Below, in pieces: positions 10,809-45,539 of a stretch of 64,000 nucleotides of DNA. This DNA is from Escherichia phage vB_EcoM-Pr121LW. Made by a program: the position numbers and the translations under genes. The DNA lies in sequence record MH752840.1; one strand, 5' to 3'. The notes beneath the pieces were generated by a model. It ran no database searches. It saw only the letters and a list, made by a program, of their open reading frames with translations, and was not told where the DNA came from. The first letter of the stretch is position 1, and each line of letters opens with the position of its first letter.

Positions 10809-10819
10809 GAGGAGGTGTT

Positions 10820-11134: not shown

Positions 11135-11144
11135 ACAAAGGTCA

Positions 11145-11176: not shown

Positions 11177-11223
11177 CACTAAAGTGTTAAAATAGTCCTA
11201 AGGAATTTTCTCAGGAGAACGTG

Positions 11224-12267
11224 ATGACTAAACCAGTTATCCCTCTTGATATTTGGGCCAATCAGGATGTTGTGCTTGAAAATACGGGAGAATTGAATAA
11301 GTCCCAACCAAAAAAAGAAGAGAGACTGAAAGGTTGGGATATGACACAAAGAGTGGCATGTGAAGTTGTTAACTTTGAACTTCACATGCTTTCTGCGTGG
11401 TTAAAGCATTTAACAGAAGATGTTGTCCCAGGATGGGATAATAGATTCTTAAGGGTCACTAATAATCTGGCAGACGTTCCAGACAAAGCTGCTGCACGTC
11501 AAGTTCTCAATGTATACTCGCCTGAAGAAATGGATGACCTTTATGTTGACAAGGCTGGAGACACAATGATCCAGACTCAAACTTTAGGTCTTCAAAGAAT
11601 CGAGTTTGCATCCGCGTCAACAGACAATGCGGCGATATACACCACCATAACTTCAGACAAGACGATGATGGATTTCTGGATTATGGACAACATCGGTGGT
11701 GCTGACGGCACAGACCTTGATGATCCCTCTCACCAAATAGACGGTTTCCGTTGGAGATTTCAACCTTCTGGTGGGCAGCCTGTGTTTTCAGCTATGAAGC
11801 TCAATGCTATAACTGCCAACCGTGCAAGACTGGCTATCCAAGGAAATCTTGAATGCAACGACGCAAAAAGTTCCTCTACAAATGCCAATGCAGCTACTAT
11901 ACCAAGAGCCACTGTTAATGGACAACAATCCTGTGGAAGCGCTCAAATAGGTGGAAGAGTTGATTGCAACGATGAAACCGTCAGGGGCCAATATGCAACA
12001 GTTGGTGGAAGAAACGTGGTCCGCAGGGTAAATGGTAACAGCGCAGACGGTAGTGGTAACCTTACTATCCCTATGCCCAGCAGAGGGGTTGATGATGTGA
12101 GGATAGCAAACCGTTTCAAAACCACCTACAGAGAGTCAAGAGTCTACCCTGGACATGTGATGTGCTCGGGTAACTACGCTTATAAACACCCTTATCAAGG
12201 TGATTACTGGACAGGTGCTATCCAAAAACTTGTAAATGGTCAATGGATCACTATATCTTATGCTTAA
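11224..12267 (+). CDS. tail fibre protein, paralogue B
   Basis: ORF track 11221 (GTG); ATG 11224 with CAGGAG SD; GDTMIQTQTLGL motif; termini paralogous to 9169..10209 (…KLVNGQWITISYA). Confidence 0.7.
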   Translation: MTKPVIPLDIWANQDVVLENTGELNKSQPKKEERLKGWDMTQRVACEVVNFELHMLSAWLKHLTEDVVPGWDNRFLRVTNNLADVPDKAAARQVLNVYSPEEMDDLYVDKAGDTMIQTQTLGLQRIEFASASTDNAAIYTTITSDKTMMDFWIMDNIGGADGTDLDDPSHQIDGFRWRFQPSGGQPVFSAMKLNAITANRARLAIQGNLECNDAKSSSTNANAATIPRATVNGQQSCGSAQIGGRVDCNDETVRGQYATVGGRNVVRRVNGNSADGSGNLTIPMPSRGVDDVRIANRFKTTYRESRVYPGHVMCSGNYAYKHPYQGDYWTGAIQKLVNGQWITISYA

Positions 12268-12278
12268 AAAGAGGGTAA

Positions 12279-12545
12279 ATGAAACTAACTCAGTTTTTAT
12301 GGGGACTGGTTGCGGCATCTGATGACCCTACGAAAGTGTCCCAATCTAAGCTATGGTCAAACATAGGTATGGCGGTGATGACTGGGGTGTTTATTCATAT
12401 GGGGTATAATGATACGCTTCCTGAATGGTATGCGTGGATATATGCGCCTTCGGTAGCTTGCCCCCAGCTTATTAGCAAATTCATCTCGCTCCGGTGGGGT
12501 TGCCAGCACCCTGACCACGTTAAAAACGAAGAGCAAAAAGCTTAA
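12279..12545 (+). CDS. small hydrophobic protein
   Basis: 88 aa; AAGAGGG SD; hydrophobic segments; downstream of fibre paralogue B. Confidence 0.45.
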   Translation: MKLTQFLWGLVAASDDPTKVSQSKLWSNIGMAVMTGVFIHMGYNDTLPEWYAWIYAPSVACPQLISKFISLRWGCQHPDHVKNEEQKA

Positions 12546-12554
12546 GGAGAGATC

Positions 12555-14300: not shown

Positions 14301-14307
14301 TATATCT

Positions 14308-14336
14308 AACCGCTCCTGACGGGGCGGTTTTCTTAT
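14308..14336 (+). terminator. rho-independent terminator
   Basis: 7-bp stem CCGCTCC/GGGGCGG with one G-U pair, then TTTTCTT. Confidence 0.55.
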
Positions 14337-14348
14337 CTGGAGAACACA

Positions 14349-17300
14349 ATGCTTCCAATCCCTTTGCTAAAACTTGGTCGTCATTTCCTCGATAAGAGGG
14401 GTGGAATTAAGGAACTTGCTGTTCTGTCATACCCAATAGACAACAGTGATGGTACAAGCAATACAGTATCCTATGTAAATAGCTTAGCTATACTTTTTGA
14501 TGATGGTCAGCTTAATATTACTGGCTATAATAGGTTCGGAGAGTGTCGGACTGGAGATCTTGATACAATAAACTATCCTAATGAGGCAGCTTGGAACGTA
14601 GACCATGTTTGGAGAGCTGACCGTGCATTTGTAATCCGCACATTCGATAATAAATTTTTCTATATTGGTTGCACAGCTGGTCTTATCGGATCTGAGGCAG
14701 CAGGTGGAAACGATGTTTGTGTCAGAGAGTGGACACCTTTGCCGGAACAGATTGTAACAGGGTTGCATTTGGACACCCATCCTGAGAGACTTGTTGAAGT
14801 AATGGGTGGCGTAAACAATACAGTGTGGGTAATTGCTGCACCAGAGGCTGATGGTATGCTTCACCTGTACGGCTCTGGCAATAATACTTACGGCTCTCTT
14901 CATGTTGACAAAAATCAACACGCTACTCCAGTTAAGATTGGTGAAACATCTGAAAGTCCAGAGACAGGTCCTTGGAAAAATCCAAGAATTAATTGTGAAG
15001 TTCATGACAACTCGGTTATTTTTGGTGGTCCTAACGGATTCTGGATTGCAGGTTACGATTTCTTAAGAAATAACAGCAAAAACGCACTAGTTTATCCAGC
15101 CGAGCATGTGACTCTTGACCAGTTTAAAGGCATCCCAGTGGGCGAGACATGGAAAGGGTTCATGTGTGGGCCTAATGGTGCAATTATAGCCACAGAAAGG
15201 ATGCACAAACCTGATGACCAACAGCTTGTTAATGTGTTTTATGGTCAGGATGTTTGGGGTGACGACACGTGGAGAAGCCTTAACATCACCTATACCCATG
15301 AAGTAATTATGGCTCGCGGGTACGGGACTAGTGGAATTTTCTTCAATAATGGTACAAAACAGTACCGTGGTTTCTCCAGAAACCTGTGTAACGATATTGG
15401 TGCTCAATCTGCTAATAATAATCCTAGGGCCAATTTTATTCATTACAGAGCGCTGGCAACAGCTAAGTTTGTTGAACAGACAGAGCCAGTAAGCTGGACA
15501 GAAAGCGTTTATTTTCAAGGGATCCACAGGGAAGGTTTCTTAGGCACATTTTGTGTGGTAAATGGAAAGCTTTGGTGGTCAGGAATACCACGTGGTAGTT
15601 TTTCAGGATCTAATAACCTCTTTGGCGGCAGACTTAACAGCCAAGGGTTCACAGAGATTCCGGAGAATTGGTATAAAAATGTCCCGGTAGATAGCTGGGG
15701 TATCGAAGACATCTTTGATGTCAATGGTGTGAGCAATGCTAGCAACATTTACATTGGAGATACTGTCAAGATGAAATTGAAACCTCAGCCGGAGGGTGCT
15801 ACGTTCATTATTGACAAGATTGAGTTGGTAAATGCTGCAGGCACTGTTGTTACAGATGCAAACTATCAGTTCTCCACTAACTGGAACCATGGTGGTGCTA
15901 ACGAAGTTGTGGTTACCCAGTATAACCGTAACATCAACAGACGTGGTTTGTATTCTATCAAGATCACCTACCATGACAAGCATGGCACTGGAAGAACCTA
16001 TACGACAAGGACTTTGAACTGGAACACTATAGTTCCTGCGTATCCGTCCGACGGCAAGTGGCATACCGTTGGTAGAAACAAGCAGTTCCATGTTAACGAT
16101 ACTGTATACTTTGGGCTGAATGGGACCCAGCCTGCAGTAGAAGGGGATACATCGTATATGGTCAGACTCCACAGAATGGATGCTGGATCAGTCACTTATG
16201 ATGTGACCCAAGAGATCTACGATCAAAGACGCGCCACGTATGACAATATTGTGAAAACACAAGCCTTGTGGGAGTTCAATCCCAATGGCAAGGGTGGTAA
16301 AATGTTGCAGGTTAATGAGCAGAACGGAACGTCGTTGACTGTTCACGAACACCCAGACCCTTGGCCTGATCCTGGAAAACCTCACCCGGGAGCTCGTACA
16401 CTGAAAATTGTCAGCCATGATGCAGGATATTTCGGAATACGCTGGGAAGCCACAGTAAGATATGCCGACGGGACAACAAACAACATAGGGATCACCCTTG
16501 GTGGCACTAGTGAGGATAACTCACTGAAAATTGCCTATACCCCTAGAGGCATCTCTATTGATAATATGGATGTTGTTCGCAACGGTTACGGTGATGTAAA
16601 TGTCAAAGTTACTCTTGGTGAACATCTCGGTGGGGAAAGGATCATCATGTATGCCTTTGATCATGATCCTCGCACCAACGGAACCTATGCAAATCAGGCG
16701 TGGAGTTACCTGATAAATGCACCTGAGCCGAATACTAAAGAGTTTTATTACGGTATGAAGCGGGATGTGTGCAAGAAAACAGGGACACATGATTGGATTG
16801 CTATCTGCGTTAAAGATGAACGAACCGCTTGGGACGAGCCTGTTAACCGATGGTTCATAGGGATTCCCACCAGAAGTGATAAGTATGTCGCAGAATATAT
16901 TGTGTGCATGGGCGGCACCAACCTGAACTTGTGTTGGAACGAGGATGCAAATAAATACTCTGATTATGACTATATGAGGGATATCTCTTGCAATCAGTGG
17001 TTTAGCCAATCAACAGGTTACCCTCCAAGACAGGCGAGAGTAAACCCTGCAATCTTCACAGACACGCAGGTTTTCTTGACAAAACAGGCCAACGAGGTTC
17101 AGACATTCAAGAATAAATACGATCCTAACAAGTGGTTCTACAACTGTTACGGCGCATTTTTCTGGGGACCTGGTGAGTTACCTGGTGGAGGATCTTGCTT
17201 GAATGAGGCAACTTACGCCAGTGACTACATCATGGGGCAGGTCAAGAAGTATAAGATAATCCCCGGTCCTGAGACTTTGGGCAATGCCGTTGACCCTTAT

Positions 17301-19985
17301 ATCATCATGACTGCACTGAGATCAAACATGGATGGGACATCCATGTCCATGCAAATTCCGGTAACAAACGGATACAAACGTGTTGTGATGATCATTAAGT
17401 GCGACCTGATAGGTAAACAAGTTCTTGCAGAAAACGGGACATCCACACATCCTTTTGAGATCGCTCTACACTATCAGTTTGCTGACTCACCTTTTGCAGG
17501 GGATAAGAGAATATCTGATACAGACGCACAGCGTTGTAAGAAAGTATTGTTGGGTGCAGGTTGGTGGTGGTATGAGTTTGATTTAACAGATAAATTCACC
17601 GACACGTCTAAAGTTGTAACAGGACTTCGTCTAGACTTTGGCGAGAACATGCACAAAGCTGTTTGTGATGGCACCTATGGTGACCCTACAATATACCTAA
17701 AATATGTTTCTTTTGAGCATCCGGAAGATGTTGTCTACGGTCCAAAACTGAGATTGTTTGGCAGCTGGATTGCAAAAGATAGGGTAGGTATGGGTAAGAA
17801 GGTAAGAGGGTTCTTGGTTGATGCAGGAACAGAAGACATGCTGGTTAATGCAGTATGGCCTGAATTACCTGGGACTCAGTGGGACAACTCAGCCAAATCT
17901 GTAAACTGGTTTAACATTCATAGGGCCATGTGGACCACTAACTGCTACTTGTGGAGAGAGCTTAACGATCAGGCCTTTGGCTTCAGCGATGGTAGAAGGA
18001 TGGCGATCATTTGCTGGACAACACTGCAAAGATGTTATGACCATAACTATGAGATTGGAGGCAGGGAATGGAAAAATATCAGGGACAGAATCATAACCAA
18101 TTTTGCAGACGACAACGGTGGCGGAGCACATAACTTTGGCACAAGCCGACTCATCCATTTGAACGGATCCTCAGCCTACAAGAAAGAAGGATACTCTGGG
18201 TCCATGATTGAGTGGGGTCTGGTAAAAGATGCTCGTGTGTTGATGGGTCAGCAACTTGCTGCTGCAATAGGGCCGAACGCAGTACAATCTGTTAAACCAG
18301 CGTGGTTCGATATCCCATTATGGTCATCTGGAACACCAGGAACTGCTGCAATCAACCCTGCCACTGGGGATTTGGAAATCTCCTGGGAAGACTTGAAGCA
18401 GGTCGGTGGTTGGGACAAAACAGGGTATCAGGTTCAGTGGTGGAGAGCTGACGGATCTTTAGCCGCTGATGAGTTTGTTAAGGACAATTTCTACACCATG
18501 TCCTCTGCAAAAGCACAGGAATTGTTCGGTCAGGCAACTCCGTCAACGATCACCATGTCCATGTGCTGTAAAGACAACAGGACTGGAGCTTTGGGGCCAA
18601 GGGTTGCTAAGGTTTTCTCAGGTATTAAATGGAATCCCTCTGTTCAAAGTGTTTCATGGAAGCAAATAGGTGATAACAAGCTGCTAGTTACCCCCGCCTG
18701 TCAGTTCAACGCAACTCTTAACGTTGATCCTGCTGCTGCGGCAAACTCAGCTAAAGCTTCTGACTTCTCTGTGTCTAACACTGCTATGGCAGATGTGAGG
18801 AAGATTGACACGCTGAACGCCAGAATTACCTGTAAAAACACTTATGGCACATTCCAGATCATCAACAACTTCACAGATGCTGATTCTAAGGTAGTGAGGA
18901 CAGCAAGCCAGACTCTGAGTTTAGGAACTCTGGCCTATGCAGCCCTGATCACTGAACAGTCGGCAACACTCCAAGGAGGTGGTGTAGGCAAGTCTATTAC
19001 AACACCTGTGTGGAAGCCAAATGAGTGGGTTGTGTTTGATTTGACTGTGGACTTCTCCAGTGATAATAACTGGACATGGGTAAGGGATTGCTTGTCACAA
19101 CTGATGGGTGGTCCAAGCTCCGTTAGTGATAGCCACGACTCCACTGACCCGAGTGTGTTTCAGGTGGGTAAAACTCACCCGGAGACTGGAGCAACTTTGC
19201 CTGACAGGAAGTATGCTTTGGTTTGCATCTCTTACGGAAAAGCAGATGTCACCTTCTCAGGAACACACACTTATAACGGTACATATAACTTCTCAAGGAA
19301 GTATAGTCTCAAGGCAGGGAACATTATAGATGAGGTTGGTCCGTTATATAACCCTGGCAACGGGATAGGGATTGTAGGCGGCAAACTGCAGATGCAGGAA
19401 CCTTCTATTACTCCTTCCAACGTGTCTGGGATCAGGAAGACTTGGGAAAGTAACAATACTGGCATCGCAACTGTGGATGCTACCACCGGACTGGTAACAT
19501 TTAAAGCTCCCGGTGATGTCACTATAACGTTTATAGTTACTGATGATGCAGGGCGCAAAACGTCTTCAACATCTTTTACTGTCAAACAGATGGCACCACA
19601 GTGGAGAATGTGGATAGGTACAGCAACAAACGGGGCATACCCTAATCCGGCAGGTACTTCTGGTATGAAGACTTTCTCTACAAGCGAACCGATGGAGTAC
19701 GGCAGCGGTCCTAAGGTAGGACAGATGGTATACTTTGGTGCGTATATTCCTGAAATTATAGGGCTTCCGAGAAGTCAGCTTCAGTTGCTGTTTGGGGCTG
19801 GTGTTGACGATCTTGCCACTTTCGGGTATAGCGACAACATCGAGGCTGCAAGGAGTTCAGGATGGGTAGGGTTCAGAATGGAGTCTGGAAAGGAAGGCAG
19901 GATTCTAGGGACAGCCTCTATAGGTGTTATGTTCCCTGGTGACCAGCAGTATCGCCTGAAAGCCTACGCAACTTTCTCTCTTTAA
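14349..19985 (+). CDS. large distal tail protein (1878 aa) with C-terminal Ig-like (Big_2-type) region
   Basis: Single long ORF; C-terminal segment VTFKAPGDVTITFIVTDDAGRKTSSTSFTV typical of bacterial Ig-like folds; last gene of late operon. Confidence 0.75.
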   Translation: MLPIPLLKLGRHFLDKRGGIKELAVLSYPIDNSDGTSNTVSYVNSLAILFDDGQLNITGYNRFGECRTGDLDTINYPNEAAWNVDHVWRADRAFVIRTFDNKFFYIGCTAGLIGSEAAGGNDVCVREWTPLPEQIVTGLHLDTHPERLVEVMGGVNNTVWVIAAPEADGMLHLYGSGNNTYGSLHVDKNQHATPVKIGETSESPETGPWKNPRINCEVHDNSVIFGGPNGFWIAGYDFLRNNSKNALVYPAEHVTLDQFKGIPVGETWKGFMCGPNGAIIATERMHKPDDQQLVNVFYGQDVWGDDTWRSLNITYTHEVIMARGYGTSGIFFNNGTKQYRGFSRNLCNDIGAQSANNNPRANFIHYRALATAKFVEQTEPVSWTESVYFQGIHREGFLGTFCVVNGKLWWSGIPRGSFSGSNNLFGGRLNSQGFTEIPENWYKNVPVDSWGIEDIFDVNGVSNASNIYIGDTVKMKLKPQPEGATFIIDKIELVNAAGTVVTDANYQFSTNWNHGGANEVVVTQYNRNINRRGLYSIKITYHDKHGTGRTYTTRTLNWNTIVPAYPSDGKWHTVGRNKQFHVNDTVYFGLNGTQPAVEGDTSYMVRLHRMDAGSVTYDVTQEIYDQRRATYDNIVKTQALWEFNPNGKGGKMLQVNEQNGTSLTVHEHPDPWPDPGKPHPGARTLKIVSHDAGYFGIRWEATVRYADGTTNNIGITLGGTSEDNSLKIAYTPRGISIDNMDVVRNGYGDVNVKVTLGEHLGGERIIMYAFDHDPRTNGTYANQAWSYLINAPEPNTKEFYYGMKRDVCKKTGTHDWIAICVKDERTAWDEPVNRWFIGIPTRSDKYVAEYIVCMGGTNLNLCWNEDANKYSDYDYMRDISCNQWFSQSTGYPPRQARVNPAIFTDTQVFLTKQANEVQTFKNKYDPNKWFYNCYGAFFWGPGELPGGGSCLNEATYASDYIMGQVKKYKIIPGPETLGNAVDPYIIMTALRSNMDGTSMSMQIPVTNGYKRVVMIIKCDLIGKQVLAENGTSTHPFEIALHYQFADSPFAGDKRISDTDAQRCKKVLLGAGWWWYEFDLTDKFTDTSKVVTGLRLDFGENMHKAVCDGTYGDPTIYLKYVSFEHPEDVVYGPKLRLFGSWIAKDRVGMGKKVRGFLVDAGTEDMLVNAVWPELPGTQWDNSAKSVNWFNIHRAMWTTNCYLWRELNDQAFGFSDGRRMAIICWTTLQRCYDHNYEIGGREWKNIRDRIITNFADDNGGGAHNFGTSRLIHLNGSSAYKKEGYSGSMIEWGLVKDARVLMGQQLAAAIGPNAVQSVKPAWFDIPLWSSGTPGTAAINPATGDLEISWEDLKQVGGWDKTGYQVQWWRADGSLAADEFVKDNFYTMSSAKAQELFGQATPSTITMSMCCKDNRTGALGPRVAKVFSGIKWNPSVQSVSWKQIGDNKLLVTPACQFNATLNVDPAAAANSAKASDFSVSNTAMADVRKIDTLNARITCKNTYGTFQIINNFTDADSKVVRTASQTLSLGTLAYAALITEQSATLQGGGVGKSITTPVWKPNEWVVFDLTVDFSSDNNWTWVRDCLSQLMGGPSSVSDSHDSTDPSVFQVGKTHPETGATLPDRKYALVCISYGKADVTFSGTHTYNGTYNFSRKYSLKAGNIIDEVGPLYNPGNGIGIVGGKLQMQEPSITPSNVSGIRKTWESNNTGIATVDATTGLVTFKAPGDVTITFIVTDDAGRKTSSTSFTVKQMAPQWRMWIGTATNGAYPNPAGTSGMKTFSTSEPMEYGSGPKVGQMVYFGAYIPEIIGLPRSQLQLLFGAGVDDLATFGYSDNIEAARSSGWVGFRMESGKEGRILGTASIGVMFPGDQQYRLKAYATFSL

Positions 19986-26785: not shown

Positions 26786-26814
26786 TTGACTTTACTCTAA
26801 ATCTCCGATATAGT
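26786..26814 (+). promoter_or_regulatory. sigma70-like promoter TTGACT-17-TATAGT
   Basis: -35 at 26786-26791, -10 at 26809-26814, in the divergent intergenic region 41 nt upstream of ATG 26855. Confidence 0.6.
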
Positions 26815-29083: not shown

Positions 29084-29353
29084 ATGTTATACCAGCAATA
29101 TGAACTTCGTGCAGAAAAAGAGTTAAATTTTGACAAAGATATTCACAGATATTATTATGGGAAAGTTAGAGGGCAAGCAAGAAAGTGTACTCCAACACTC
29201 TTTTATGCCAGCAGACGACTAGCGCCAGAAGAGGCAACAGCAGAAAGGGTTGCGTACAACTGGAGAGTCACGTATGATATTGACAGATCCGATGTGATAT
29301 CTGTTTTGGAAAACTTTGAAAACACTTACACACAAGTAGAGGACTTTTACTAA
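29084..29353 (+). CDS. hypothetical protein
   Basis: 89 aa; GGAG SD. Confidence 0.5.
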   Translation: MLYQQYELRAEKELNFDKDIHRYYYGKVRGQARKCTPTLFYASRRLAPEEATAERVAYNWRVTYDIDRSDVISVLENFENTYTQVEDFY

Positions 29354-30537
29354 TGTCAAGAAACGTATTTGAAAGTGGTCAAATCACTGTCCGTGAGTTG
29401 CCAGCTATCATTCAGTTTGCCCAGCGTCATAACCGATCTGTCCTGATTTTAGGACCAATGGGCGTGGGAAAGAGCCAAGTGATGAAGCAGATCGCCGATA
29501 ATATGTTCGGTGAGCGAGATGATAACTTGGTTGACGTGCGACTGTCAGATAAAGATCCTGCCGACTTATCTGGGCTACCTATCCCTGTAGAAGCGGATGG
29601 AACTACACGTACAGTATTTGCAATTCCAGAATTTTGGCCTGCGGATCCTGACTGGAGCGGAATTATCTTTCTGGATGAGCTCACTCATGCAGATAACTAC
29701 CTGCAAAAGGTTGCAATGCAAATTATGCTCGACCACAAGTGCGGTACCTATGCATTCCCTAAGGGTTCTGTTTTTGTGGCTGCTGGTAACCGTTCTACAG
29801 ATGGTGCGGTTCTTTCGGCGCTCGAAGCCCCTCTGGCTAACCGTTTTATCATTGTAGAAGTTACAAGCAATGCAGAGGTGTTTATTGAGGACTACGCATT
29901 CCTTAATGGGGTGCACTCCTCTGTAATTGGATATCTGAAAAGAGTTCCATCAGCTATCGATAATTATGAGGCCATGGCTGAGATTAATTGTCCATCTTTT
30001 GCCACACCACGATCTTGGGTTGCTGCATCTGATATCTTGCACGATTTTGACAGCGGTATTATTTCTGACGCTATGGCCCGTGTTCTTCTGCAAGGTGCTA
30101 TCGGTCACACTGCAGCGGTAGAGATCTGGACTTACCACACCAAGAAACGCAACTTACCGGAAATCGGTCGGATTATGGCAGGAGGTTGCAAAGAATATGT
30201 AGGTCCTAAACAGCCAGACATCTTGTGGATTCTTGGATCTGAAGGCTGTATCGCTATTCGTAATATGATGGAAAATGCAAGTATCTCCGACGAAGATCTT
30301 GTTAGCTGTGTGGCAAACTTCCTCGATTTCCTTTGGGAAAACTTCAAGGACGAGAACCGAGATTTTGTATTCTCGGTCTTTATGGCGATGATGAAACCTA
30401 ATGCCTTAGGAAATGCCTTGCTTATCGGTAAAGGTCGTGACAAGATTGTTGCTCAGCTGATCAAAGCATACCCAAACCTGATGAAGATTGTAAAAGAGTT
30501 TGGTGAAGAGTTTAGCGCCATTTTGGCTAAAGCTTAA
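29353..30537 (+). CDS. AAA+ ATPase, MoxR/AAA_5-like
   Basis: 394 aa; Walker A LILGPMGVGKSQ; Walker B IIFLDELTHA; sensor region AAGNRSTDG. Confidence 0.8.
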   Translation: MSRNVFESGQITVRELPAIIQFAQRHNRSVLILGPMGVGKSQVMKQIADNMFGERDDNLVDVRLSDKDPADLSGLPIPVEADGTTRTVFAIPEFWPADPDWSGIIFLDELTHADNYLQKVAMQIMLDHKCGTYAFPKGSVFVAAGNRSTDGAVLSALEAPLANRFIIVEVTSNAEVFIEDYAFLNGVHSSVIGYLKRVPSAIDNYEAMAEINCPSFATPRSWVAASDILHDFDSGIISDAMARVLLQGAIGHTAAVEIWTYHTKKRNLPEIGRIMAGGCKEYVGPKQPDILWILGSEGCIAIRNMMENASISDEDLVSCVANFLDFLWENFKDENRDFVFSVFMAMMKPNALGNALLIGKGRDKIVAQLIKAYPNLMKIVKEFGEEFSAILAKA

Positions 30538-30546
30538 GGAGGTTGT

Positions 30547-30927
30547 ATGGCTAAAGTAGGTAAGCGGGGGAACTACCTGGTGATATTGACCGAGGAGCCG
30601 GAGAAGGAGTATGAATGCAGCTCCACTTGCGTGATCGATATCCGAGAAAAAGATGTAGATGAAATCTGGTTTAAAATATTGGACGCTTGCGATAGCAGTG
30701 ATTATTTCTTCATCTATGTCAACGATAAGGCTGGGTTCTTCCATGACGACGGAGAGTTGCCGTATGAAATCTATGAACTTGTAGAGGCTTGCCATCGTGG
30801 AGATGCGGAGTTGTTTGGCTTACGGCTGAAAAGCGGTAAATTCTTCTATCAAGATGAGTGCATGAATCTTCATAACTTTGTAGAGGGAACTTGCAACGAT
30901 GGAGAGATTTTGGCACACTACGATTAA
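30547..30927 (+). CDS. hypothetical protein
   Basis: 126 aa; AAGGAGG SD. Confidence 0.5.
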   Translation: MAKVGKRGNYLVILTEEPEKEYECSSTCVIDIREKDVDEIWFKILDACDSSDYFFIYVNDKAGFFHDDGELPYEIYELVEACHRGDAELFGLRLKSGKFFYQDECMNLHNFVEGTCNDGEILAHYD

Positions 30928-30937
30928 TTTCTAAGAC

Positions 30938-30966
30938 CACCCCGCTTCGGCGGGGATTTTCTATTT
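30938..30966 (+). terminator. rho-independent terminator, CCCCGC-UUCG-GCGGGG hairpin
   Basis: Same hairpin core as 4800-4815, followed by ATTTTCTATTT. Confidence 0.7.
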
Positions 30967-30975
30967 GGAGTTATT

Positions 30976-31476
30976 GTGAAAATTAAGATCTTTGCTATTA
31001 TTTTGAGCGCATTTTTATCGCTGCCTGTTGTTGCAGCACCAAAACAAAAAGTATACCATACTTGCAAGCCATCAGATACTAAGGAAAACATTCTAGCATG
31101 CAATATCTACAGGGAAGCTAGAGGGGATGGCACGATGGGTATGCTGGCATCTGGGTTTGCCACCCTAAACAGGAAATCTCATCCCAAATACCCAGACACT
31201 ATAAGAAAGATTGTCTACCAACCTAATCAGTTTTCGTGGACAAACTACGGCAAAACTTTTAAGGTGACAGAAAAAGATTCATGGGATCACGCTAAAAGTC
31301 TTGCAAAGATGCTTCTAAAGGTCTATAATAACAACCATGTTGCATACATGGCTATGGATATAACAGGTGGAGCAACACACTACCATACAACCAAAGTACG
31401 ACCGAAATGGGCAAAAAAGATGCAGAGGACAGCTCAATTCGGGAGCCATATCTACTACAAGGAGCGCAATAAATGA
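30976..31476 (+). CDS. secreted cell-wall hydrolase, SleB/Hydrolase_2-like
   Basis: 166 aa; N-terminal signal peptide MKIKIFAIILSAFLSLPVVAAP; motifs CNIYREARGDG…MLASGFATLNR…YQPNQFSW. Confidence 0.7.
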   Translation: MKIKIFAIILSAFLSLPVVAAPKQKVYHTCKPSDTKENILACNIYREARGDGTMGMLASGFATLNRKSHPKYPDTIRKIVYQPNQFSWTNYGKTFKVTEKDSWDHAKSLAKMLLKVYNNNHVAYMAMDITGGATHYHTTKVRPKWAKKMQRTAQFGSHIYYKERNK

Positions 31477-33455
31477 TCGTAAACAGTAATGAAACTAAAG
31501 CGGTACTGACCGGGAATATGGAGGTAACCAGGGGATCAATTTCTCTGAACAAAGAGACTTTTGGGCTAATCATTAAAGGGATTTACGAAGATAAGGTGCT
31601 GGCAAGCTGCCGTGAACCAATCTTCAATGCTGTGGACTCTCATGTTGAGTCTGGACGTGGTGATGTACCGATCATCATTCACTCTCCTACAGACCTTGAA
31701 CCATACTTCTTTGTACAGGACGTTGGATTGGGCATGTCAGAAGAGATGGTCCGCAACACTTTCATGAACCTCGGGGAGTCAACCAAGCGCAACAGCAACG
31801 CTCTGGTAGGTAATAAAGGTGTTGGTTCAAAGGCTCCGTTCAGCATGGTGGACACTTTCGATGTGATCAGCGTGCATAACGGTGTTGAAAGCACATATCT
31901 ATTGTTCTTGGATCAGGGTATCCCAAACGTTACCAAGATCCGCGAGCGGAAGACTGAAGAGCACAACGGGGTAAAAGTTCAGTTCCATGTTAAGAAAGAG
32001 CATGTCCTGAAATATCGCACTGCTATTGCATCGTGCTTACGCTATGCGAAGTTTCCGTTCACCGTCACCGATCCCATGACCAGTAAGATGTTAGAAGGTG
32101 ACAAGGTTGAGGCACAGTATCGTTACGAGAAGGATGGCTGGAAAATGACCATCCTGAAAGGTTATACCAGTTCTGATGAGAGCCGTGTTGTGATGGGTCA
32201 CCAACCTTACCGCTCTAAGTTCCTGGAGACATTGACCGATTACCCTGCAATCTGCGTGGAAATTCCTATTGGGGATTGCAATATTAACCCTGGGCGTGAA
32301 TGGACCATAGAGGGCCATGACGACGGTGGATTCCAGGATCGCCTGGAGGCCTTTGTCAAAGAAGGTATACGTCTTCGCGGGGCAGAAGTTGTTGCAGAAC
32401 TGGAGACGGCAAAAACCTCCGCAGAAGCACGTGAAATGATGAAGAATAGTGGTGTGTTCGGACACATCTTCGGCAAAAACTTTATGTGGAACCGTTGGGA
32501 AGAAACAGGGCTTGGTGACTTAGGCGATTGTGAAATTTTCGCTGGCGGCTTAAATAAGGGCCGCATAGGCTATGCTCGTTACGGAAAGTCGGAGTTCTTA
32601 CGAGGTGTATACCTTGTATTTAACGACGGAGACGGCAAATATAACCGGAATAAGTGTAACTACTTAAGCGAGATCACCGGACGCAACGTTTTCTATTGCC
32701 GTAACACGGATCTGGTGGAAGAGTTTAAAGAAGCGGCACACCACCCGTTCTTTGCAGATACGGTCAAATTGTTATCAGAACTCCCTCGCCGACCTGTCAA
32801 GAAAGGTGAAACAAAAACTCGTTATGAGCCAGGCTATTGGGTTAAAAAACTTGAGAAGGATGGTTACTTCCGCCGTGAGCGTATTACTAAGGCAGAGTTC
32901 CGGAAGATTAAACACTGCATCCCTTATGAGGGTGATATCCAACGTGGAAGTTGTTGGCTGGGGCAGATGAGTAACATCTACCAGCAAAATTATGACCGTG
33001 TGCGTGCGGCACTTCAGATTCCTGAAGGTGAAGATCTGTACCTGGTATCAGAATCTCGTCTGCTTTGGACTGGTCCTGATTGCCAGTATGTTACAGAGAA
33101 AAATGTGGAACATTTGTTGAAAGAGGACGCCTGGCAATTCTTACTGACTCGCGCAGCAAATGAAACTTCATATGACAGCCTGTATAGACAATTAGGGAAA
33201 ATTATCCCCATGCAAGATTTTGGAAATTATCGGCCACATTTCCACAAGTGGGAAGGTAACACCGCGTGGAAGCACAGTGAGCTAAATCATCGTGCCAAAA
33301 TCTTAATCGCTAACCGAGTCAAGTGCGGGAAGGCCTATATTGCAAGATTGGAAAAGAAATATCCGCTTTTGAAGCATGTGGGCTTGAAATATTGGGACAC
33401 TCCTGCTATGATTGAATACCGTGAACTGATCGACGCAAAGAATAACACCAAATAA
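31473..33455 (+). CDS. rIIA: rIIA-like protein with GHKL-type ATPase domain
   Basis: 660 aa; N box REPIFNAVDSH, G1 box FVQDVGLGMS, G2 GNKGVGSKAPFSMVDTFDVIS; resembles T4 rIIA as recalled. Confidence 0.8.
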   Translation: MIVNSNETKAVLTGNMEVTRGSISLNKETFGLIIKGIYEDKVLASCREPIFNAVDSHVESGRGDVPIIIHSPTDLEPYFFVQDVGLGMSEEMVRNTFMNLGESTKRNSNALVGNKGVGSKAPFSMVDTFDVISVHNGVESTYLLFLDQGIPNVTKIRERKTEEHNGVKVQFHVKKEHVLKYRTAIASCLRYAKFPFTVTDPMTSKMLEGDKVEAQYRYEKDGWKMTILKGYTSSDESRVVMGHQPYRSKFLETLTDYPAICVEIPIGDCNINPGREWTIEGHDDGGFQDRLEAFVKEGIRLRGAEVVAELETAKTSAEAREMMKNSGVFGHIFGKNFMWNRWEETGLGDLGDCEIFAGGLNKGRIGYARYGKSEFLRGVYLVFNDGDGKYNRNKCNYLSEITGRNVFYCRNTDLVEEFKEAAHHPFFADTVKLLSELPRRPVKKGETKTRYEPGYWVKKLEKDGYFRRERITKAEFRKIKHCIPYEGDIQRGSCWLGQMSNIYQQNYDRVRAALQIPEGEDLYLVSESRLLWTGPDCQYVTEKNVEHLLKEDAWQFLLTRAANETSYDSLYRQLGKIIPMQDFGNYRPHFHKWEGNTAWKHSELNHRAKILIANRVKCGKAYIARLEKKYPLLKHVGLKYWDTPAMIEYRELIDAKNNTK

Positions 33456-33465
33456 GGAGACAGCT

Positions 33466-34671
33466 ATGATTTTCATCTACGAACATTTCAAAACTCGTAA
33501 AGAAGCACGCGACCGCCGTGCAGAACTTGAGAAGAAGGGTTTCACATGTGCTATTGAGAAAGGTACTACAACATGGACACTGGCAGTAGGTGCCCCAGAG
33601 CTGTTTGATCCTGACCGAGACAGTGTCTGCTATACCCGTGAGGATTTTGAAACCCGCGAAGAGGCCCGTTTATTCCGCTACGGACTGGAAGACAACGGTA
33701 AGTACGCCATGATCTTAGATTCAGGAGAAGGTTCCGTTAAACGTTGGAGTGTGGTATACCCACTGTGCGTTGTTCACGGTGTGGGGTTCACTGGAGTAGC
33801 AATCAAGTCAGAAGAACCTTCAGTAGAAGTCAAAGATCCGGTGCTGGAGGTGGTAAGCAGTGTTTCTCAACAACAGACTCGAAGCATAGAGCCTTTAGTA
33901 GTTATTTGTGGAGAACTTCTCCAAATCACCTGCAACGAAGGTATTTTTGAAATTCGCCGCAGTGAAAGTGAAGAAGTTTACCAGAAAGTCTTCGACCATA
34001 TCTCTGTTCAGAAATATGACGAGGCAATTGGTGAAATCCTTGTCTGGTTGGAACGCAAGAATGAGTTCACTACACTTGCAGACAACCTGATTATGAAAGA
34101 TGGTAAGCTCTATTACTACGGTGTAGAGATGCAATCTACCATTGCAAAGAAAATTGAGGAAGATTATGTAGATGGAACACTGGACGACCGATATGTTAAA
34201 TTCCTTGTCCGTCTGCTACGCAACCCGTCTGCAAAATCTGTGAACATGCTCTACGATTTCATGCAGGCTAATGACATCCAGGTTGCAGAAGATGGTCGAA
34301 TCATTTGCTATAAAGGGGTTCAGTTTAACGGAGGCAAGTGGGTGGATTGGCACAGCGGTAAAGTTCCACAATACCAGGGTGCTTTTGTATCCATGCCTCG
34401 TAACTTTGTAGAAGATGATCCGGAAGCTGCGTGTTCTTATGGCCTGCACTGCGCCAGCAAAGAGTATGCAGCTGGCTATGGCACCGTAATGATGGTTATG
34501 GTTGACCCTGCGGATGTGGTTAGTGTGCCATACCAACACAACAGTGCTAAGTGCCGTGCATGCCGCTACGAAATCGTAGCAGCACCGGAATCACGCAAAG
34601 ATGGCGATCCGATTGAATACGTAGTTGACCGTGATGGTAACATCATCGACATTATCTACGAGGAGGCGTAA
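33466..34671 (+). CDS. rIIB: rIIB-like protein
   Basis: 401 aa; C-terminal MLYDFMQANDIQVAEDG…SYGLHCASKEY…VDPADVVSVP…AKCRACRYEIV resembles T4 rIIB as recalled; adjacent to rIIA. Confidence 0.8.
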   Translation: MIFIYEHFKTRKEARDRRAELEKKGFTCAIEKGTTTWTLAVGAPELFDPDRDSVCYTREDFETREEARLFRYGLEDNGKYAMILDSGEGSVKRWSVVYPLCVVHGVGFTGVAIKSEEPSVEVKDPVLEVVSSVSQQQTRSIEPLVVICGELLQITCNEGIFEIRRSESEEVYQKVFDHISVQKYDEAIGEILVWLERKNEFTTLADNLIMKDGKLYYYGVEMQSTIAKKIEEDYVDGTLDDRYVKFLVRLLRNPSAKSVNMLYDFMQANDIQVAEDGRIICYKGVQFNGGKWVDWHSGKVPQYQGAFVSMPRNFVEDDPEAACSYGLHCASKEYAAGYGTVMMVMVDPADVVSVPYQHNSAKCRACRYEIVAAPESRKDGDPIEYVVDRDGNIIDIIYEEA

Positions 34672-36041
34672 TGGAAAAAGGGCAGTATGACGTAGGCACA
34701 GATGCTGCCCTCATTGCAATCATGAGCGGTGAGAATGTCTTCGTTTCAGGACCCGCAGGTTGTGGGAAGACGTATCTCATCAACATGATCCAGTCCATGT
34801 ATGGAGACTCTTGCATAACGGTTGCCCCGACAGGGGTAGCCGCATTAAACGTTAATGGAGCAACAGCACACCGAACATTCGATCTTGCAGCAGGTGTGAG
34901 CATGGAGTCGGACTGGACTGCAATAAGGGCAAAAACAGCAAAGCCTTTGAAAAGCAAGGCATTTACCATCCTAATTATCGATGAAATCTCTATGATCCGT
35001 GCTGATAAGTTTATAGAGATGGATAGGAAACTCCGCTTCCTTCGAAAAAATGACAAACCTTTCGGAGGCATACAGGTCATATTGTTTGGCGATTTTTACC
35101 AAGCACCTCCTGTTGTCTCTTCTATGGAGAAGGAAGCCTACTTCAACTTCTACCATACGGACCTGTGTTGCTATACCGAATCTTGGAAAGAGCTTGACCT
35201 CCACAACATAGCCCTAGTAGATCAGTTCCGACAGGAGTCTATTCGATTTGCCACAATGCTCAACTGTGTTCGTGAGGGTCGTCGCATAAAAGAGGTTGTA
35301 GCAGAACTTAATGCTCGTTGTTACAAAGGCGGTGTACCAACAGACGCTCTCACAATTTGCGCCACCAACAAACAAGCGGAGGAAGTGAACAGAAGGTTCT
35401 ATGATGCCATCAACGCCCCAGAAAAGGTATACACTGGTGAAATGAAGGGTAAGTTTCCCTCCACCCTGCCAGTTGAGCAGGAGATGAAGTTGAAAATTGG
35501 CATGAAAGTTATGATAACCGCCAACGATGTTGACCCGACGCACAAAGTACCTTATTATGTTAACGGAACACGTGCCACAATTGTTAAATTTAAGAACAAG
35601 GCGGTGGTGGTAGAGCTTGAAGATGGAACACAGGTTGACATAGAACAGAGGTTGTGGGAGAATAACGAGTATAAGCCATCTCAAAGATACAACATTGCAG
35701 AAAGGAAGATGGAGAAGTTTATAGAGAGGGTAGTGATTGGATCATACAAGCAACTTCCTCTGAAATCTGGGTATGCCGTAACATCTCATAAAAGTCAAGG
35801 ACTTACGCTAGATTGTTACAACCTGGACCTTGGAAAGAACGGAGCTTTCTCTCCTGGGATGACGTATGTTGCTTTGAGTCGAGTTAAGACAATACAAGGG
35901 ATAAACTTGTTGCGTCCACTAAGAGAAGTTGATATTATTGTTGACCCGCGAGTCGTAGAGTTTTACAATACAACATTCCCTGACTTAGACAAAATTGTCA
36001 GGAAAGATTTTGAAACCAGAGCAGAAGAGGGGGACGTATGA
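34671..36041 (+). CDS. SF1B DNA helicase, Pif1/RecD/Dda-like
   Basis: 456 aa; Walker A GPAGCGKTY; Walker B LIIDEISM; motif SHKSQGLTLD. Confidence 0.8.
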   Translation: MEKGQYDVGTDAALIAIMSGENVFVSGPAGCGKTYLINMIQSMYGDSCITVAPTGVAALNVNGATAHRTFDLAAGVSMESDWTAIRAKTAKPLKSKAFTILIIDEISMIRADKFIEMDRKLRFLRKNDKPFGGIQVILFGDFYQAPPVVSSMEKEAYFNFYHTDLCCYTESWKELDLHNIALVDQFRQESIRFATMLNCVREGRRIKEVVAELNARCYKGGVPTDALTICATNKQAEEVNRRFYDAINAPEKVYTGEMKGKFPSTLPVEQEMKLKIGMKVMITANDVDPTHKVPYYVNGTRATIVKFKNKAVVVELEDGTQVDIEQRLWENNEYKPSQRYNIAERKMEKFIERVVIGSYKQLPLKSGYAVTSHKSQGLTLDCYNLDLGKNGAFSPGMTYVALSRVKTIQGINLLRPLREVDIIVDPRVVEFYNTTFPDLDKIVRKDFETRAEEGDV

Positions 36042-44559: not shown

Positions 44560-44814
44560 ATGAAAATTACTTTGAAGCCAGAATGCGTTGCAAATGACCG
44601 AGCTTTTAAAGATTGCACAGTCGGTGCAATCTATGAAGCAGAGTTTTGTGAGAACCCTCTGGTAAAAGCCCTTCTGGAAGAAGGGGCCCCTTTATCACAA
44701 GAAGAGATTGATGAGCTGGAAAACTCAGCACAGTGCCTTACCTTTAAAGATGATGAAGGAGACTCTGTCTGGTGCACTGTTAATGAGGTAGTTTTTGTAA
44801 AACCTGAACATTAA
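44560..44814 (+). CDS. small protein, paralogue family member 4
   Basis: 84 aa; motif FKDDEGDSVWC; AAGGAG SD. Confidence 0.5.
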   Translation: MKITLKPECVANDRAFKDCTVGAIYEAEFCENPLVKALLEEGAPLSQEEIDELENSAQCLTFKDDEGDSVWCTVNEVVFVKPEH

Positions 44815-44817
44815 TAC

Positions 44818-44846
44818 TTGACAACAGTGATAGGGCCTAATATAAT
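44818..44846 (+). promoter_or_regulatory. sigma70 promoter TTGACA-17-TATAAT with -10 inside a 9-bp-arm palindrome
   Basis: -35 at 44818-44823, -10 at 44841-44846; palindrome GATAGGGCC-N9-GGCCCTATC at 44829-44855. Confidence 0.65.
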
Positions 44847-44877
44847 GGCCCTATCAAAACGAAAGGGGACCACAGCA

Positions 44878-45150
44878 ATGACCAAACAATATCAACGAAT
44901 TAAAGCCAAGGTTAAGCCAGACTATCTGGAGAAAGACTCTGCTTTTCGGGACTGCACAGCCGACAAAGTTTACACAGGGGCCGTCCTGTTGAACGATGAA
45001 CTTGAAGTAGATATTCTGGGTAAAGAGGCCACTATTAAGGACGACCAAGGCGATTATGTTTGCTGCACCACACGTGAGCTAGAAATCTTAGAATACTTCG
45101 GTGAAATCTTCACCTCTCTTGATGATTACTTAGATGATGAGGAAGCGTGA
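44878..45150 (+). CDS. small protein, paralogue family member 5
   Basis: ORF track 44818 would include the promoter; ATG 44878 preferred; motif IKDDQGDYVCC. Confidence 0.5.
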   Translation: MTKQYQRIKAKVKPDYLEKDSAFRDCTADKVYTGAVLLNDELEVDILGKEATIKDDQGDYVCCTTRELEILEYFGEIFTSLDDYLDDEEA

Positions 45151-45539
45151 TGAAAAATATTTGGGATATCAATATCTTTGAAGCCTCTAAGCTTGATGGT
45201 GCTGATGGAGTGATTATGGTATCTGATGGCAAGGCAACACTAACTTCCGGAGATATCATCTATGCCTTGGACGAGCTGGCGCTTCTGAAATCTACCGGTA
45301 ACACTCTAGAGGAGCGTCTTCAAGGCTTCGCCTTCAAAGAAGGTACAAATACAGCCATGATGTGCACCACACGGACAGTTCAGATGGGTAACGGTGTCTA
45401 TATGATTATTGCTGTGTGTCCTAAATTCAGCAACGTCAACAAAGATGATGCTGACGCGGTGAACGATGTGGTTGTTCTCTTCGTGGGTGACGCTATGGCA
45501 GATCTGATGAATGCAGGGGAAGCAGCAAATGAAGACTGA
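45147..45539 (+). CDS. hypothetical protein
   Basis: 130 aa. Confidence 0.5.
   Translation: MMKNIWDINIFEASKLDGADGVIMVSDGKATLTSGDIIYALDELALLKSTGNTLEERLQGFAFKEGTNTAMMCTTRTVQMGNGVYMIIAVCPKFSNVNKDDADAVNDVVVLFVGDAMADLMNAGEAANED

Follow-up and report, generated by a model that had tools for sequence, protein, structure and literature searches.

The 64,000-nucleotide stretch of Escherichia phage vB_EcoM-Pr121LW DNA that was analysed as a whole (record MH752840.1; hereafter the window) belongs to the genome of an rV5-like Vequintavirus of E. coli. Within it, a gene for a SleB-like hydrolase with predicted export is located on the forward strand, immediately upstream of homologues of rIIA and rIIB. 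The following features were assigned:

26786–26814, + strand: sigma70-type promoter TTGACT-17-TATAGT (10/12 matches), equivalent to rV5 P010
30940–30966, + strand: intrinsic terminator with stem CCCCGC/GCGGGG, UUCG tetraloop and T-rich tail, equivalent to rV5 t003
30967–30970, + strand: Shine-Dalgarno sequence GGAG, 5 nt 5' of the GTG start, read from the sequence
30976–31476, + strand: coding sequence of the SleB-like (Hydrolase_2) hydrolase with predicted export, GTG start, 166 aa
30976–31035, + strand: predicted signal peptide, residues 1–20 (MKIKIFAIILSAFLSLPVVA), from hydrophobicity and the −3/−1 rule
31114–31116, + strand: codon of Glu47, the predicted catalytic acid, aligned with the Glu of YGESRGE in SleB (4F55/4FET)
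31126–31458, + strand: Hydrolase_2 catalytic domain, residues 51–161 by Pfam limits, with the fold match starting at about residue 38
31460–31476, + strand: rIIA junction, with AGGAG at 31460–31464 and an ATGA stop/start overlap at 31473–31476
31473–33455, + strand: rIIA homologue (PHROG 612, E 1e-123; Pfam HATPase_c_3), context, same transcript
33466–34671, + strand: rIIB homologue (PHROG 609, E 2e-60), context, same transcript
57022–57393, + strand: holin candidate, strongly hydrophobic in its N-terminal region and homologous to BASEL bas48_0115, by annotation only

For the encoded precursor a mass of 19.1 kDa was computed from the sequence, and for the predicted mature form of 146 residues a mass of 16.9 kDa and a pI of 9.9. 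According to profile matches, the neighbours of the gene code for a MoxR-type ATPase and a hypothetical protein as well as for rIIA and rIIB. The TGA that ends the gene shares bases with the ATG of rIIA, and this overlap, together with the preceding AGGAG, suggests translational coupling. Comparison with phage CarlMeissner revealed 10 synonymous vs. 2 non-synonymous codon differences, i.e. purifying selection. For rV5, the gene had already been published in 2013 along with its domain and with terminator t003 (Kropinski et al., DQ832317, PMC3606486); the gene described here is the same gene as rV5 gp2 in another isolate. The order SleB-rIIA-rIIB-helicase is kept in Vequinta- and Seunavirus, no rII neighbour was found at the Phapecoctavirus, T5 and PaP1 loci, and Certrevirus keeps the SleB-like gene in a genome without rII (PMC7344957). 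A functional coupling to rII was rejected because the adjacency is confined to part of one subfamily; judged by gene order, it is subfamily synteny only.

The protein was matched to PHROG 938 and to Pfam Hydrolase_2 (PF07486; E 4e-19, 69.5 bits vs. a gathering cut-off of 27), covering positions 2–100 of the 100-position profile. The motifs IYREARGDG, MLASGFATLNR and YQPNQFSW are located at residues 44–52, 56–66 and 81–88, respectively. An AlphaFold model (pLDDT 92.7, pTM 0.83) gave only 4FET and 4F55 as PDB matches at E < 0.001, with TM-scores of 0.74–0.79 (normalised to target) and 18–24% identity. Glu47, which sits in a Y-x-E-[AS]-R-G motif, was invariant in alignments of 13 and 56 sequences and, along with nine other residues, over six lineages sharing only 32–52% identity. 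The SleB equivalog model TIGR02869 scored 47 bits vs. a cut-off of 236.5, and only its positions 83–201 were matched. An N-terminal peptidoglycan-binding domain was absent, the Pfam scan returning Hydrolase_2 only; residues 1–20 form the predicted signal peptide and residues 21–37 a short linker. By profile and modelled fold, the domain is a member of the Hydrolase_2 (SleB/CwlJ) family and not SleB proper.

The N-terminus, MKIKIFAIILSAFLSLPVVA followed by APKQK, displays the n/h/c layout of a type I signal peptide, with a predicted signal peptidase I cut between Ala20 and Ala21 (VVA/AP). The 12-residue Kyte-Doolittle maximum of the signal region was 2.7, and Pro, Val and Ala occupy positions −4, −3 and −1, respectively. 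Since Pro at +1 disfavours signal peptidase cleavage, a cut one residue further on is disfavoured. The h-region IFAIILSAFLSLPVV consists of I, L, F or V at 10 of 15 positions (Kyte-Doolittle 2.7–2.95). When aligned with an 81%-identical homologue (P0002), the signal region proved to evolve faster (10/20 identical residues vs. 125/146 in the mature part), the signal layout being kept despite this divergence. An export signal, either signal peptide or lipobox, was present in 119 of 121 homologues, the two exceptions being fragments; cleavage motifs were SFA, VLA, VVA, SQA and VDA, and both soluble and lipoprotein versions (lipobox LLSTAS/C) occur in the phage family. PaP1 gp029 has an N-terminal hydrophobic anchor without obvious cleavage site. 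Heuristics and conservation thus predict a signal peptide. Cys30 and Cys42 are both present in all aligned Vequintavirinae and Phapecoctavirus homologues; one could imagine a disulfide between them, which would support a periplasmic location.

The sigma70-type promoter is identical in sequence to P010 in Table S4 of the rV5 paper and forms the start of a long rightward early/replication unit containing the SleB-like gene; the stringent rV5 promoter list holds no other promoter between P010 and this gene (PMC3606486). On the + strand, no late-promoter-like motif was detected from 18.3 to 37.0 kb. The hairpin CCCCGC-TTCG-GCGGGG at 30940–30955, followed by ATTTTCTATTT, was the sole 6/6 G-C stem within the 10.5 kb scanned, with a local fold of −15 kcal/mol; rV5 t003 was published with a dG of −16.0 (PMC3606486). 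Over the whole region, 9 terminator-like structures were found vs. 8.6 expected, which is not above chance, so that the support for this hairpin comes from its own strength and its conservation. A terminator lies directly 5' of the homologue in 5/8 loci examined, analogous upstream hairpins accompany the Certre-, Seuna-, Phapecocta- and Pakpunavirus homologues, and GTG or TTG start codons are used in three lineages. The space between terminator and start codon is too short for a promoter. We infer that the terminator is leaky and attenuates expression of the SleB-like gene and of rIIA/rIIB, and the promoter and terminator sequences suggest early, low-level expression. Alternatively, the terminator could end the upstream unit, with an unrecognised promoter serving the SleB-like gene. 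Late expression is argued against by the context, i.e. the sigma70 unit from P010 and the apparent lack of a late motif.

An earlier note, made from the sequence alone, had described this locus in much the same way. The reading frame with the motifs quoted there, the SleB-like domain (with SleB-only structure matches), the gene's own upstream terminator, and the position directly before rIIA and outside a lysis cassette were recovered as described. Its classical cleavable signal peptide agrees with the n/h/c layout, the −3/−1 rule and the conservation among homologues, and its placement within an early module with the apparent sigma70-driven early/replication unit beside rIIA/rIIB.

Lysis functions were assigned elsewhere in the Vequintavirus genome: a lambda-R-type endolysin (E 1e-56 to PDB 1AM7) without signal sequence, an i/o-spanin pair and the holin candidate, all scattered and not in one cassette. 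In the rV5 paper, gp89 was considered the obvious lysin and gp129 the holin candidate, the latter differing from the bas48_0115 homologue (PMC3606486). PaP1 encodes a separate canonical endolysin, gp072 (PF11860, muramidase), with holin and spanin; this muramidase-holin-spanin cassette led us to reject the Pakpunavirus homologue as a sole endolysin. Separate canonical endolysins have also been reported in T5-like phages, Phapecoctavirus, Septuagintavirus and Mydovirus, as well as in Certrevirus (PMC7344957), and those of PaP1 and T5-like phages adjoin a holin. Between Vequintavirinae genera the canonical endolysin varies, and the SleB-like gene is more conserved. As to the features of a canonical holin-dependent endolysin, the SleB-like protein has an export signal, its gene does not lie beside holin or spanin genes, and it is not the phage's only muralytic lysis gene. 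A role as main endolysin was rejected, given the lambda-R homologue, spanins and holin candidate and the canonical endolysins in all other cultured lineages checked; with these separate genes present, it is very improbable that the phage relies mainly on the SleB-like protein for lysis. Of the earlier proposal of a Sec-exported endolysin, the export signal stood, as a prediction, and the main lysis route was weakened. A separate holin-endolysin cassette had been named as speaking against that proposal: endolysin, spanins and a holin candidate were indeed found, a cassette was not.

Homologues were collected by profile search, a word-index search alone having given 10 proteins. The domain is present in 1262 phage records, and the export signal is kept in at least seven lineages (Vequinta-, Seuna-, Certre-, Phapecocta-, T5-like and Pakpuna-viruses and an uncultured phage). 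In every lineage examined, early or replication genes surround the homologue; a partner gene conserved alongside it was not found. No membrane-protein neighbour was detected in Vequinta-, Phapecocta-, T5-like and Pakpuna-viruses or the metagenomic phage; the stop of the Certrevirus homologue is followed by a small, already published frame with two transmembrane segments (PMC7344957). A hidden lysis cassette around the homologue was rejected, this frame occurring in Certrevirus only among Certre-, Phapecocta-, T5-like and Pakpuna-viruses and the metagenomic phage. A virion-associated lysin is unlikely given the predicted cleavable signal, and the SleB-domain protein of PA5oct is missing from the virion proteome; the rV5 mass-spectrometry table, looked up by name, holds no "cell wall" entry (PMC3606486). 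What the present analysis adds is the cross-lineage pattern, read from sequence: in these seven or more lineages of large virulent phages infecting Gram-negative bacteria, a SleB-like enzyme with export signal is encoded outside lysis cassettes, and every cultured lineage has a canonical endolysin besides.

We consider it probable, with some reserve, that the protein is a periplasmic lytic transglycosylase, made at low level and independent of a holin, which serves as an accessory and not as the main endolysin. SleB itself has the chemistry of a lytic transglycosylase. Sec would export the precursor, and signal peptidase I would cut it after Ala20; the mature enzyme, basic and 146 residues long, would then break MurNAc-GlcNAc linkages of the host sacculus in the periplasm, with no holin needed. 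Transcription would proceed from P010 by read-through of the terminator 10 nt 5' of the ribosome-binding site, and translation would begin at the GTG start, with co-transcription and probable translational coupling with rIIA. The protein would thereby be made early or continuously, in amounts kept deliberately low; this would suit it, toxicity upon overexpression having been reported. Beside the canonical pathway of lambda-R-type endolysin, holin and spanins, the enzyme would then loosen or remodel the wall as an accessory. Such a role does not explain why the SleB-like gene is more strictly conserved in Vequintavirinae than the canonical endolysin. The searched literature yielded no enzymatic, localisation, timing or genetic data on this protein or its phage homologues, and no time course, by RNA-seq or proteomics, that resolves any homologue at the gene level.

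Three other explanations were weighed against this accessory role. An endolysin of the Lys44 type, exported by Sec, restrained in the periplasm until the holin collapses the membrane potential, and redundant with or a back-up for the lambda-R-type enzyme, appears unlikely to us. The export signal, the intact catalytic site, the toxicity in E. coli and the described implication of the CR3 homologue in lysis of the host (PMC7344957) would all suit such an enzyme, as would the two-transmembrane frame after the Certrevirus gene and the annotation of the adjacent rIIA/rIIB as membrane-integrity proteins. However, every cultured lineage examined has another canonical endolysin, holin-adjacent in PaP1 and T5-like phages; the SleB-like gene was never found in a lysis cassette, apart from Certrevirus it lacked a membrane-protein neighbour in the lineages named above, and it belongs to a sigma70 early unit in which no late-promoter motif precedes it. 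The name endolysin that PHROG and many GenBank records give to the homologue is an automatic annotation. Distinctly unlikely, in our estimate, is an early periplasmic effector unconnected with lysis, which would alter the sacculus to exclude superinfecting phages, counter envelope-linked defence or adapt the wall. This would accord with the predicted holin-independent export, the early/replication-module position in all lineages, a conservation stricter than that of the swappable canonical endolysins, the occurrence of soluble and lipoprotein forms as among bacterial Slt/Mlt housekeeping transglycosylases, and the apparently tight damping of expression. It is countered by the lack of a conserved partner gene in the lineages examined and by the restriction of rII adjacency to part of one subfamily; moreover, superinfection-exclusion proteins of this compartment, T4 Sp and Imm among them, are not known to be enzymes. 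The early periplasmic peptidoglycan remodeller considered in the earlier note fits the data; the specific link to superinfection control drawn there has no support.

A catalytically dead or vestigial domain, serving as a peptidoglycan-binding or inhibitor protein, or a mis-called reading frame, was regarded as highly improbable. The low TIGR02869 score and the missing N-terminal peptidoglycan-binding domain could be read in this sense, as could the substrate: Bacillus SleB needs muramic-delta-lactam, which E. coli peptidoglycan does not contain. Against this stand the invariance of Glu47 and nine further positions among such divergent lineages, purifying selection, the confident fold, the number of phage records and the reported toxicity. 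For the favoured accessory transglycosylase, the absence of muramic-delta-lactam from the host means that substrate recognition must differ from that of SleB; activity on E. coli murein is assumed.

In itself, the finding in this window is ordinary: the gene had been annotated before, and its phage genus is well sampled. Two muralytic enzymes occur together in many large virulent phages of Gram-negative hosts, one of them the SleB-like enzyme with predicted self-export; databases label both "endolysin", and SleB-like genes should not receive that name by default. Tentatively, and as a possibility that we would not yet lean on, exported SleB-type transglycosylases may constitute a widespread, unstudied phage class, always additional to the canonical endolysin, always outside the lysis cassette and expressed at low level in early/replication units, whose job would be sacculus remodelling during infection and not terminal lysis. 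The proposed class would span Vequintavirinae, Phapecoctavirus, T5-like phages, Pakpunavirus, jumbo phages and uncultured phages. If so, remodelling might prime the wall for fast lysis, exclude competitors or evade envelope-linked defence. If a wall enzyme that needs no holin is made from early transcripts, lysis biology has to ask what keeps the cell intact up to the programmed time of lysis; for enzybiotic screening, a small, basic, self-exporting transglycosylase, as predicted here, is an attractive scaffold. With the BASEL Vequintaviruses and the T5 gene T5.083, direct testing is feasible on E. coli K-12.

Among known systems, the closest is rV5 gp2 ('cell wall hydrolase'), or V5 'SleB': identity to the V5 protein is 98.8%, and length (166 aa), Pfam domain, upstream terminator (t003) and location ahead of rIIA all agree. 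For CB7_83 of Pectobacterium phage CB7, the Certrevirus orthologue, a signal peptide, conservation in all Vequintavirinae genera and toxicity upon expression in E. coli (data not shown) were reported (Buttimer et al. 2020, PMC7344957). T5.083, PaP1 gp029, the Phapecoctavirus 'SleB' and PA5oct gp368 share the domain, the invariant residues and the export signal; their genes, too, lie amid early or replication functions and away from the lysis cassette, and a canonical endolysin is present as well. They differ in showing only 32–43% identity and in having no rII neighbour. The spore-cortex enzyme SleB of Bacillus (4F55, 4FET) resembles the phage protein in the fold of the catalytic domain and the motif glutamate, but has an N-terminal PG_binding_1 domain that the phage protein lacks, and the phage carrying the latter infects a Gram-negative host.

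Lys44 of oenophage fOg44 and the SAR endolysins P1 Lyz and phage 21 R likewise reach the wall by a holin-independent route. Each is its phage's only endolysin and is encoded in a lysis cassette, whereas the SleB-like protein has a canonical endolysin alongside, an early-gene location and a different catalytic fold. Its N-terminus is not the weakly hydrophobic, Gly/Ala/Ser-rich anchor of SAR enzymes, the h-region being strongly hydrophobic and followed by Pro at −4 and a V-x-A motif (a heuristic distinction); a cleavable N-terminal signal peptide of the Lys44 type is indicated by its sequence features and their conservation. With Slt70 and MltA-E the likeness is functional only: these are exported murein cutters, in soluble and lipoprotein forms, which cause no lysis at low activity. 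Their SLT and MltA folds are unrelated to Hydrolase_2, and the enzyme described here is phage-encoded.

At window 30976-31476 the earlier note had recognised a 166-aa SleB-like Hydrolase_2 protein with three motifs, encoded directly before rIIA and not in a lysis cassette, and this description was borne out. The motifs were located at residues 44-52, 56-66 and 81-88, Pfam returned Hydrolase_2 (PF07486; E 4e-19, 69.5 bits against a cut-off of 27), and PHROGs returned family 938, labelled "endolysin". The TGA stop overlaps the rIIA ATG (ATGA, 31473-31476), and an AGGAG stands 9 nt ahead of the overlap. Upstream are genes for a MoxR-type ATPase and a small conserved hypothetical protein; a Dda/PIF1-type helicase is encoded further downstream. 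The features of the region are:

26786-26814: promoter TTGACT-17-TATAGT, unit start, in a region of divergent promoters next to the anti-sigma gene
30940-30966, + strand: terminator hairpin, CCCCGC-TTCG-GCGGGG then ATTTTCTATTT
30976-31476, + strand: SleB-like CDS, 166 aa, GTG start, GGAG 5 nt upstream
31473-33455, + strand: rIIA, directly downstream of the SleB-like gene
33466-34671, + strand: rIIB, downstream of rIIA

Gene, domain and terminator are already published: the gene is rV5 gene 2, a 166-aa "cell wall hydrolase" with PF07486 (Kropinski et al. 2013, PMC3606486), and is named SleB in the phage V5 GenBank record. The source is an rV5-like Escherichia phage of the genus Vequintavirus, and the 5.4 kb around the gene are 98.7% identical to MiataMamis and 96-97% to about a hundred other records. 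Among GenBank entries, 16-19 unannotated records titled 'Campylobacter phage' (MG0656xx, stated host Campylobacter jejuni) share ~96-97% identity with the window (e.g. 1-25000, 29300-34700), and their host attribution looks doubtful. A baseplate-module gene at window 639-1064 (+) carries the BASEL name 'cell wall hydrolase protein' (bas48_0030); its only matches were DUF6950 (Pfam) and an unknown-function PHROG, neither of which supports hydrolase activity.

Among solved structures, only 4F55 and 4FET, both SleB catalytic domains, had a sequence match; in the alignment, Glu47 of YREARGD pairs with the glutamate of YGESRGE, and the catalytic glutamate is invariant among the aligned homologues. 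An AlphaFold model built from 56 homologues was confident (pLDDT 92.7, pTM 0.83), with SleB as its only significant PDB neighbour (TM-score 0.79, normalised to target). Since 10 synonymous and 2 non-synonymous codon differences separate the gene from that of the relative CarlMeissner (BASEL Bas48), it is, judged by its codons, under purifying selection. Of the molecular identity alone we are highly confident; for the biological role our confidence is far lower. BFVD matches to the model included Hydrolase_2 folds inside phage proteins of >1000 aa (Rhizobium phage Palo, Agrobacterium phage Atu_ph03, Q8W6J4), where, on the models, the domain is used in another way, as part of a fusion.

In the N-terminal sequence, MKIKIFAIILSAFLSLPVVA|APKQK, a basic n-region is followed by a strongly hydrophobic core of 15 residues, Pro stands at -4 and Val/Ala occupy -3/-1, in agreement with the classical cleavable signal peptide claimed before. 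Signal peptidase I does not accept Pro at +1. Cleavage is predicted after Ala20, because a cut one residue later would leave Pro at that position; the predicted mature protein has 146 residues (16.9 kDa, pI 9.9). The signal was tested by its conservation across homologues: a profile search gave 543, of which 120 were listed, and in the set of 121 sequences examined an N-terminal export signal was found in 119, the two exceptions being truncated fragments. The signal sequence varies among lineages, its kind does not:

Certrevirus: ...TSFA|KE
Seunavirus: ...PVLA|KE
Phapecoctavirus: ...PVVA|KA
T5.083: ...SSQA|SH

An 81% identical homologue (P0002) shares only 10 of 20 signal residues but 125 of 146 mature residues, and nevertheless keeps the layout (...LPSFA|AT). 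This conservation argues that export to the periplasm is a trait of the family, which would make the enzymes independent of the holin. The signal peptide is missing from the deposited CDS of Salmonella phage SPLA5a (OR413583; locus 3959-4531), which begins at an internal ATG (4148); the frame is open from 3959, and a TTG start at 4001 restores MKIKAIILATACAFSLTTTPVLA|KE.

Around half of the homologues among the matches listed bear a conserved lipobox (LLSTAS|C) and are predicted lipoproteins; all of these come from phage-like contigs of uncultured origin. In this group (P0006, P0092 and about 60 others; 153-155 aa) the lipobox replaces the type I signal peptide. One member lies at 8001-8465 of a phage-like 96.7 kb metagenome contig (Ga0597512_0000094), among early and replication genes, with an integrase gene also present; its closest isolated-phage match is only 52% identical.

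The hairpin at 30940-30966, noted earlier as the gene's own terminator, outranked every other terminator-like site in a 10.5 kb scan, where the total of 9 such sites was not above chance (8.6 expected); it is the published rV5 terminator t003 (dG -16.0), and the promoter at 26786-26814 is P010, with none in the stringent rV5 list between P010 and the SleB-like gene (PMC3606486). The rV5 late-promoter motif TGGTAAAATA (<=1 mismatch) occurred 18 times in the window (6.4 expected; no shuffle reached 18), concentrated in the tail-fibre/baseplate module (10 on the + strand, window 1597-18229), with none on the + strand at 18.3-37.0 kb. Only 10 nt separate the terminator T-run from the ribosome-binding site, from which we infer that the gene and rIIA/rIIB would be transcribed by read-through. 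A G+C-rich hairpin with T-run, ~50-90 nt from the start codon, also precedes the gene in Certre-, Seuna-, Phapecocta- and Pakpunavirus, in unrelated intergenic sequences (5/8 loci examined, absent at the T5 and metagenomic-contig loci); GTG or TTG starts occur in three lineages. The Certrevirus orthologue CB7_83 was reported to be toxic in E. coli (Buttimer et al. 2020, PMC7344957). Taken with this toxicity, the terminators, GTG or TTG starts and read-through arrangement suggest selection for low expression. In Escherichia phage ESCO37 (Phapecoctavirus; locus 3880-3985), the hairpin GAGGGGGA-GAAA-TCCCCCTC leads straight into a sigma70 promoter with an extended -10 (TTGCAA-17-TATACT, the -10 preceded by TGT) and then a TTG start, which looks like a self-contained host-polymerase unit; the neighbouring genes are annotated general stress protein 16U and TelA-like protein.

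Early genes, or genes of nucleotide metabolism and replication, surround the SleB-like gene in every lineage looked at:

Vequintavirus: MoxR ATPase on one side, rIIA/rIIB/helicase on the other
Seunavirus: 5' of rIIA/rIIB
Certrevirus: 5' of helicase, without rII
Phapecoctavirus: adjoins general-stress protein and TelA-like gene
T5: early region, annotated promoters around
PaP1: adjoins DNA ligase and dCMP deaminase
Uncultured 96.7 kb contig: near endonuclease VII, ThyX and primase-helicase

CB7_83 was also reported to have a signal peptide and to be conserved in all Vequintavirinae genera (PMC7344957). Directly after the SleB-like stop of Pectobacterium phage PcCB7V (locus ~4530-4730), an unannotated frame of ~64 aa contains two hydrophobic stretches (...LLHWWLTPLFGSVW...VPLVMFFGGVLTGLMIVLNLFI...) and agrees with the description of CB7_82 as a class II holin candidate (PMC7344957).

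Several lysis genes of CarlMeissner lie away from the SleB-like locus:

i-spanin/o-spanin pair: adjoins terminase
bas48_0115, homologue at window 57022-57393, + strand: holin candidate (BASEL 'putative holin')
bas48_0210, CarlMeissner locus 44720-45190: "endolysin", beside DNA ligase, outside the window

The product of 57022-57393 (123 aa, strongly hydrophobic N-terminal region) belongs to an unknown-function PHROG; the holin candidate of the rV5 paper is a different one (gp129, 78 aa), and the rV5 counterpart of bas48_0210, gp89, was called "an obvious lysin" (PMC3606486). bas48_0210 matched phage lambda lysozyme (PDB 1AM7) over its whole length (E 1e-56) and is a member of PHROG 90, with no Pfam-A match at E <= 0.01, a gap that could mislead automatic annotation. 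In PaP1 (Pakpunavirus), a PF11860 muramidase (gp072), holin (gp073) and spanin (gp074) follow the tail-fibre genes, 33 kb from the SleB-like gp029, which adjoins DNA ligase. T5-like phages have an M15C peptidase adjoining the holin and a distant SleB ORF (PMC11180984, PMC3326045), and Phapecoctavirus a GH24 lysozyme besides Hydrolase_2 (PMC10793346); the canonical endolysin is an M15 peptidase or lysozyme-like enzyme in Certrevirus (PMC7344957), M15C in Septuagintavirus (PMC11370258) and a GH19 enzyme, active in vitro, in Mydovirus (PMC9862379). A separate canonical endolysin thus accompanied the SleB-like gene in each cultured lineage looked at; the canonical endolysin varies among lineages, and what stays the same is the exported SleB-like protein. 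The SleB-domain protein gp368 of PA5oct was not detected in virions.

Lytic-transglycosylase chemistry is established for SleB. By analogy, the reading we favour as reasonably probable is an exported SleB-type lytic transglycosylase with early, attenuated expression and an accessory wall role: the precursor would be exported by Sec and cleaved after Ala20, translation would be coupled to rIIA, and the periplasmic enzyme would loosen or remodel the wall beside the canonical holin-endolysin-spanin pathway. The Sec-exported endolysin proposed earlier is improbable as the main lysis enzyme, given the lambda-R-type endolysin, spanins and holin candidate encoded elsewhere in Vequintavirus; a Lys44-type Sec endolysin, restrained until the membrane potential collapses, would share the predicted export and is unlikely. 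Less probable again is an early non-lysis effector, acting for example in superinfection exclusion or defence evasion, to which the place beside early genes would be suited. A dead or vestigial domain, set against the invariant glutamate and purifying selection, is very improbable.

The SleB-like enzyme presents a cross-lineage regularity: it is always predicted to be exported, is never part of the lysis cassette, often has a terminator before it and, in cultured lineages, always co-occurs with a separate canonical endolysin. This regularity is an easily testable question rather than a discovery; the searchable literature yielded no study of the biochemistry, genetics or transcript timing of a phage Hydrolase_2 protein. 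Among known systems, the protein is a member of Pfam Hydrolase_2 but not a SleB equivalog on sequence (TIGR02869, 47 bits against a cut-off of 236.5; no peptidoglycan-binding domain). It falls outside the definitions of both canonical and SAR endolysins; with Lys44-type endolysins it shares the predicted export route, though probably not the role. The closest functional likeness, by analogy, may be to the bacterial periplasmic Slt/Mlt transglycosylases, including their lipoprotein versions, although the fold is different.
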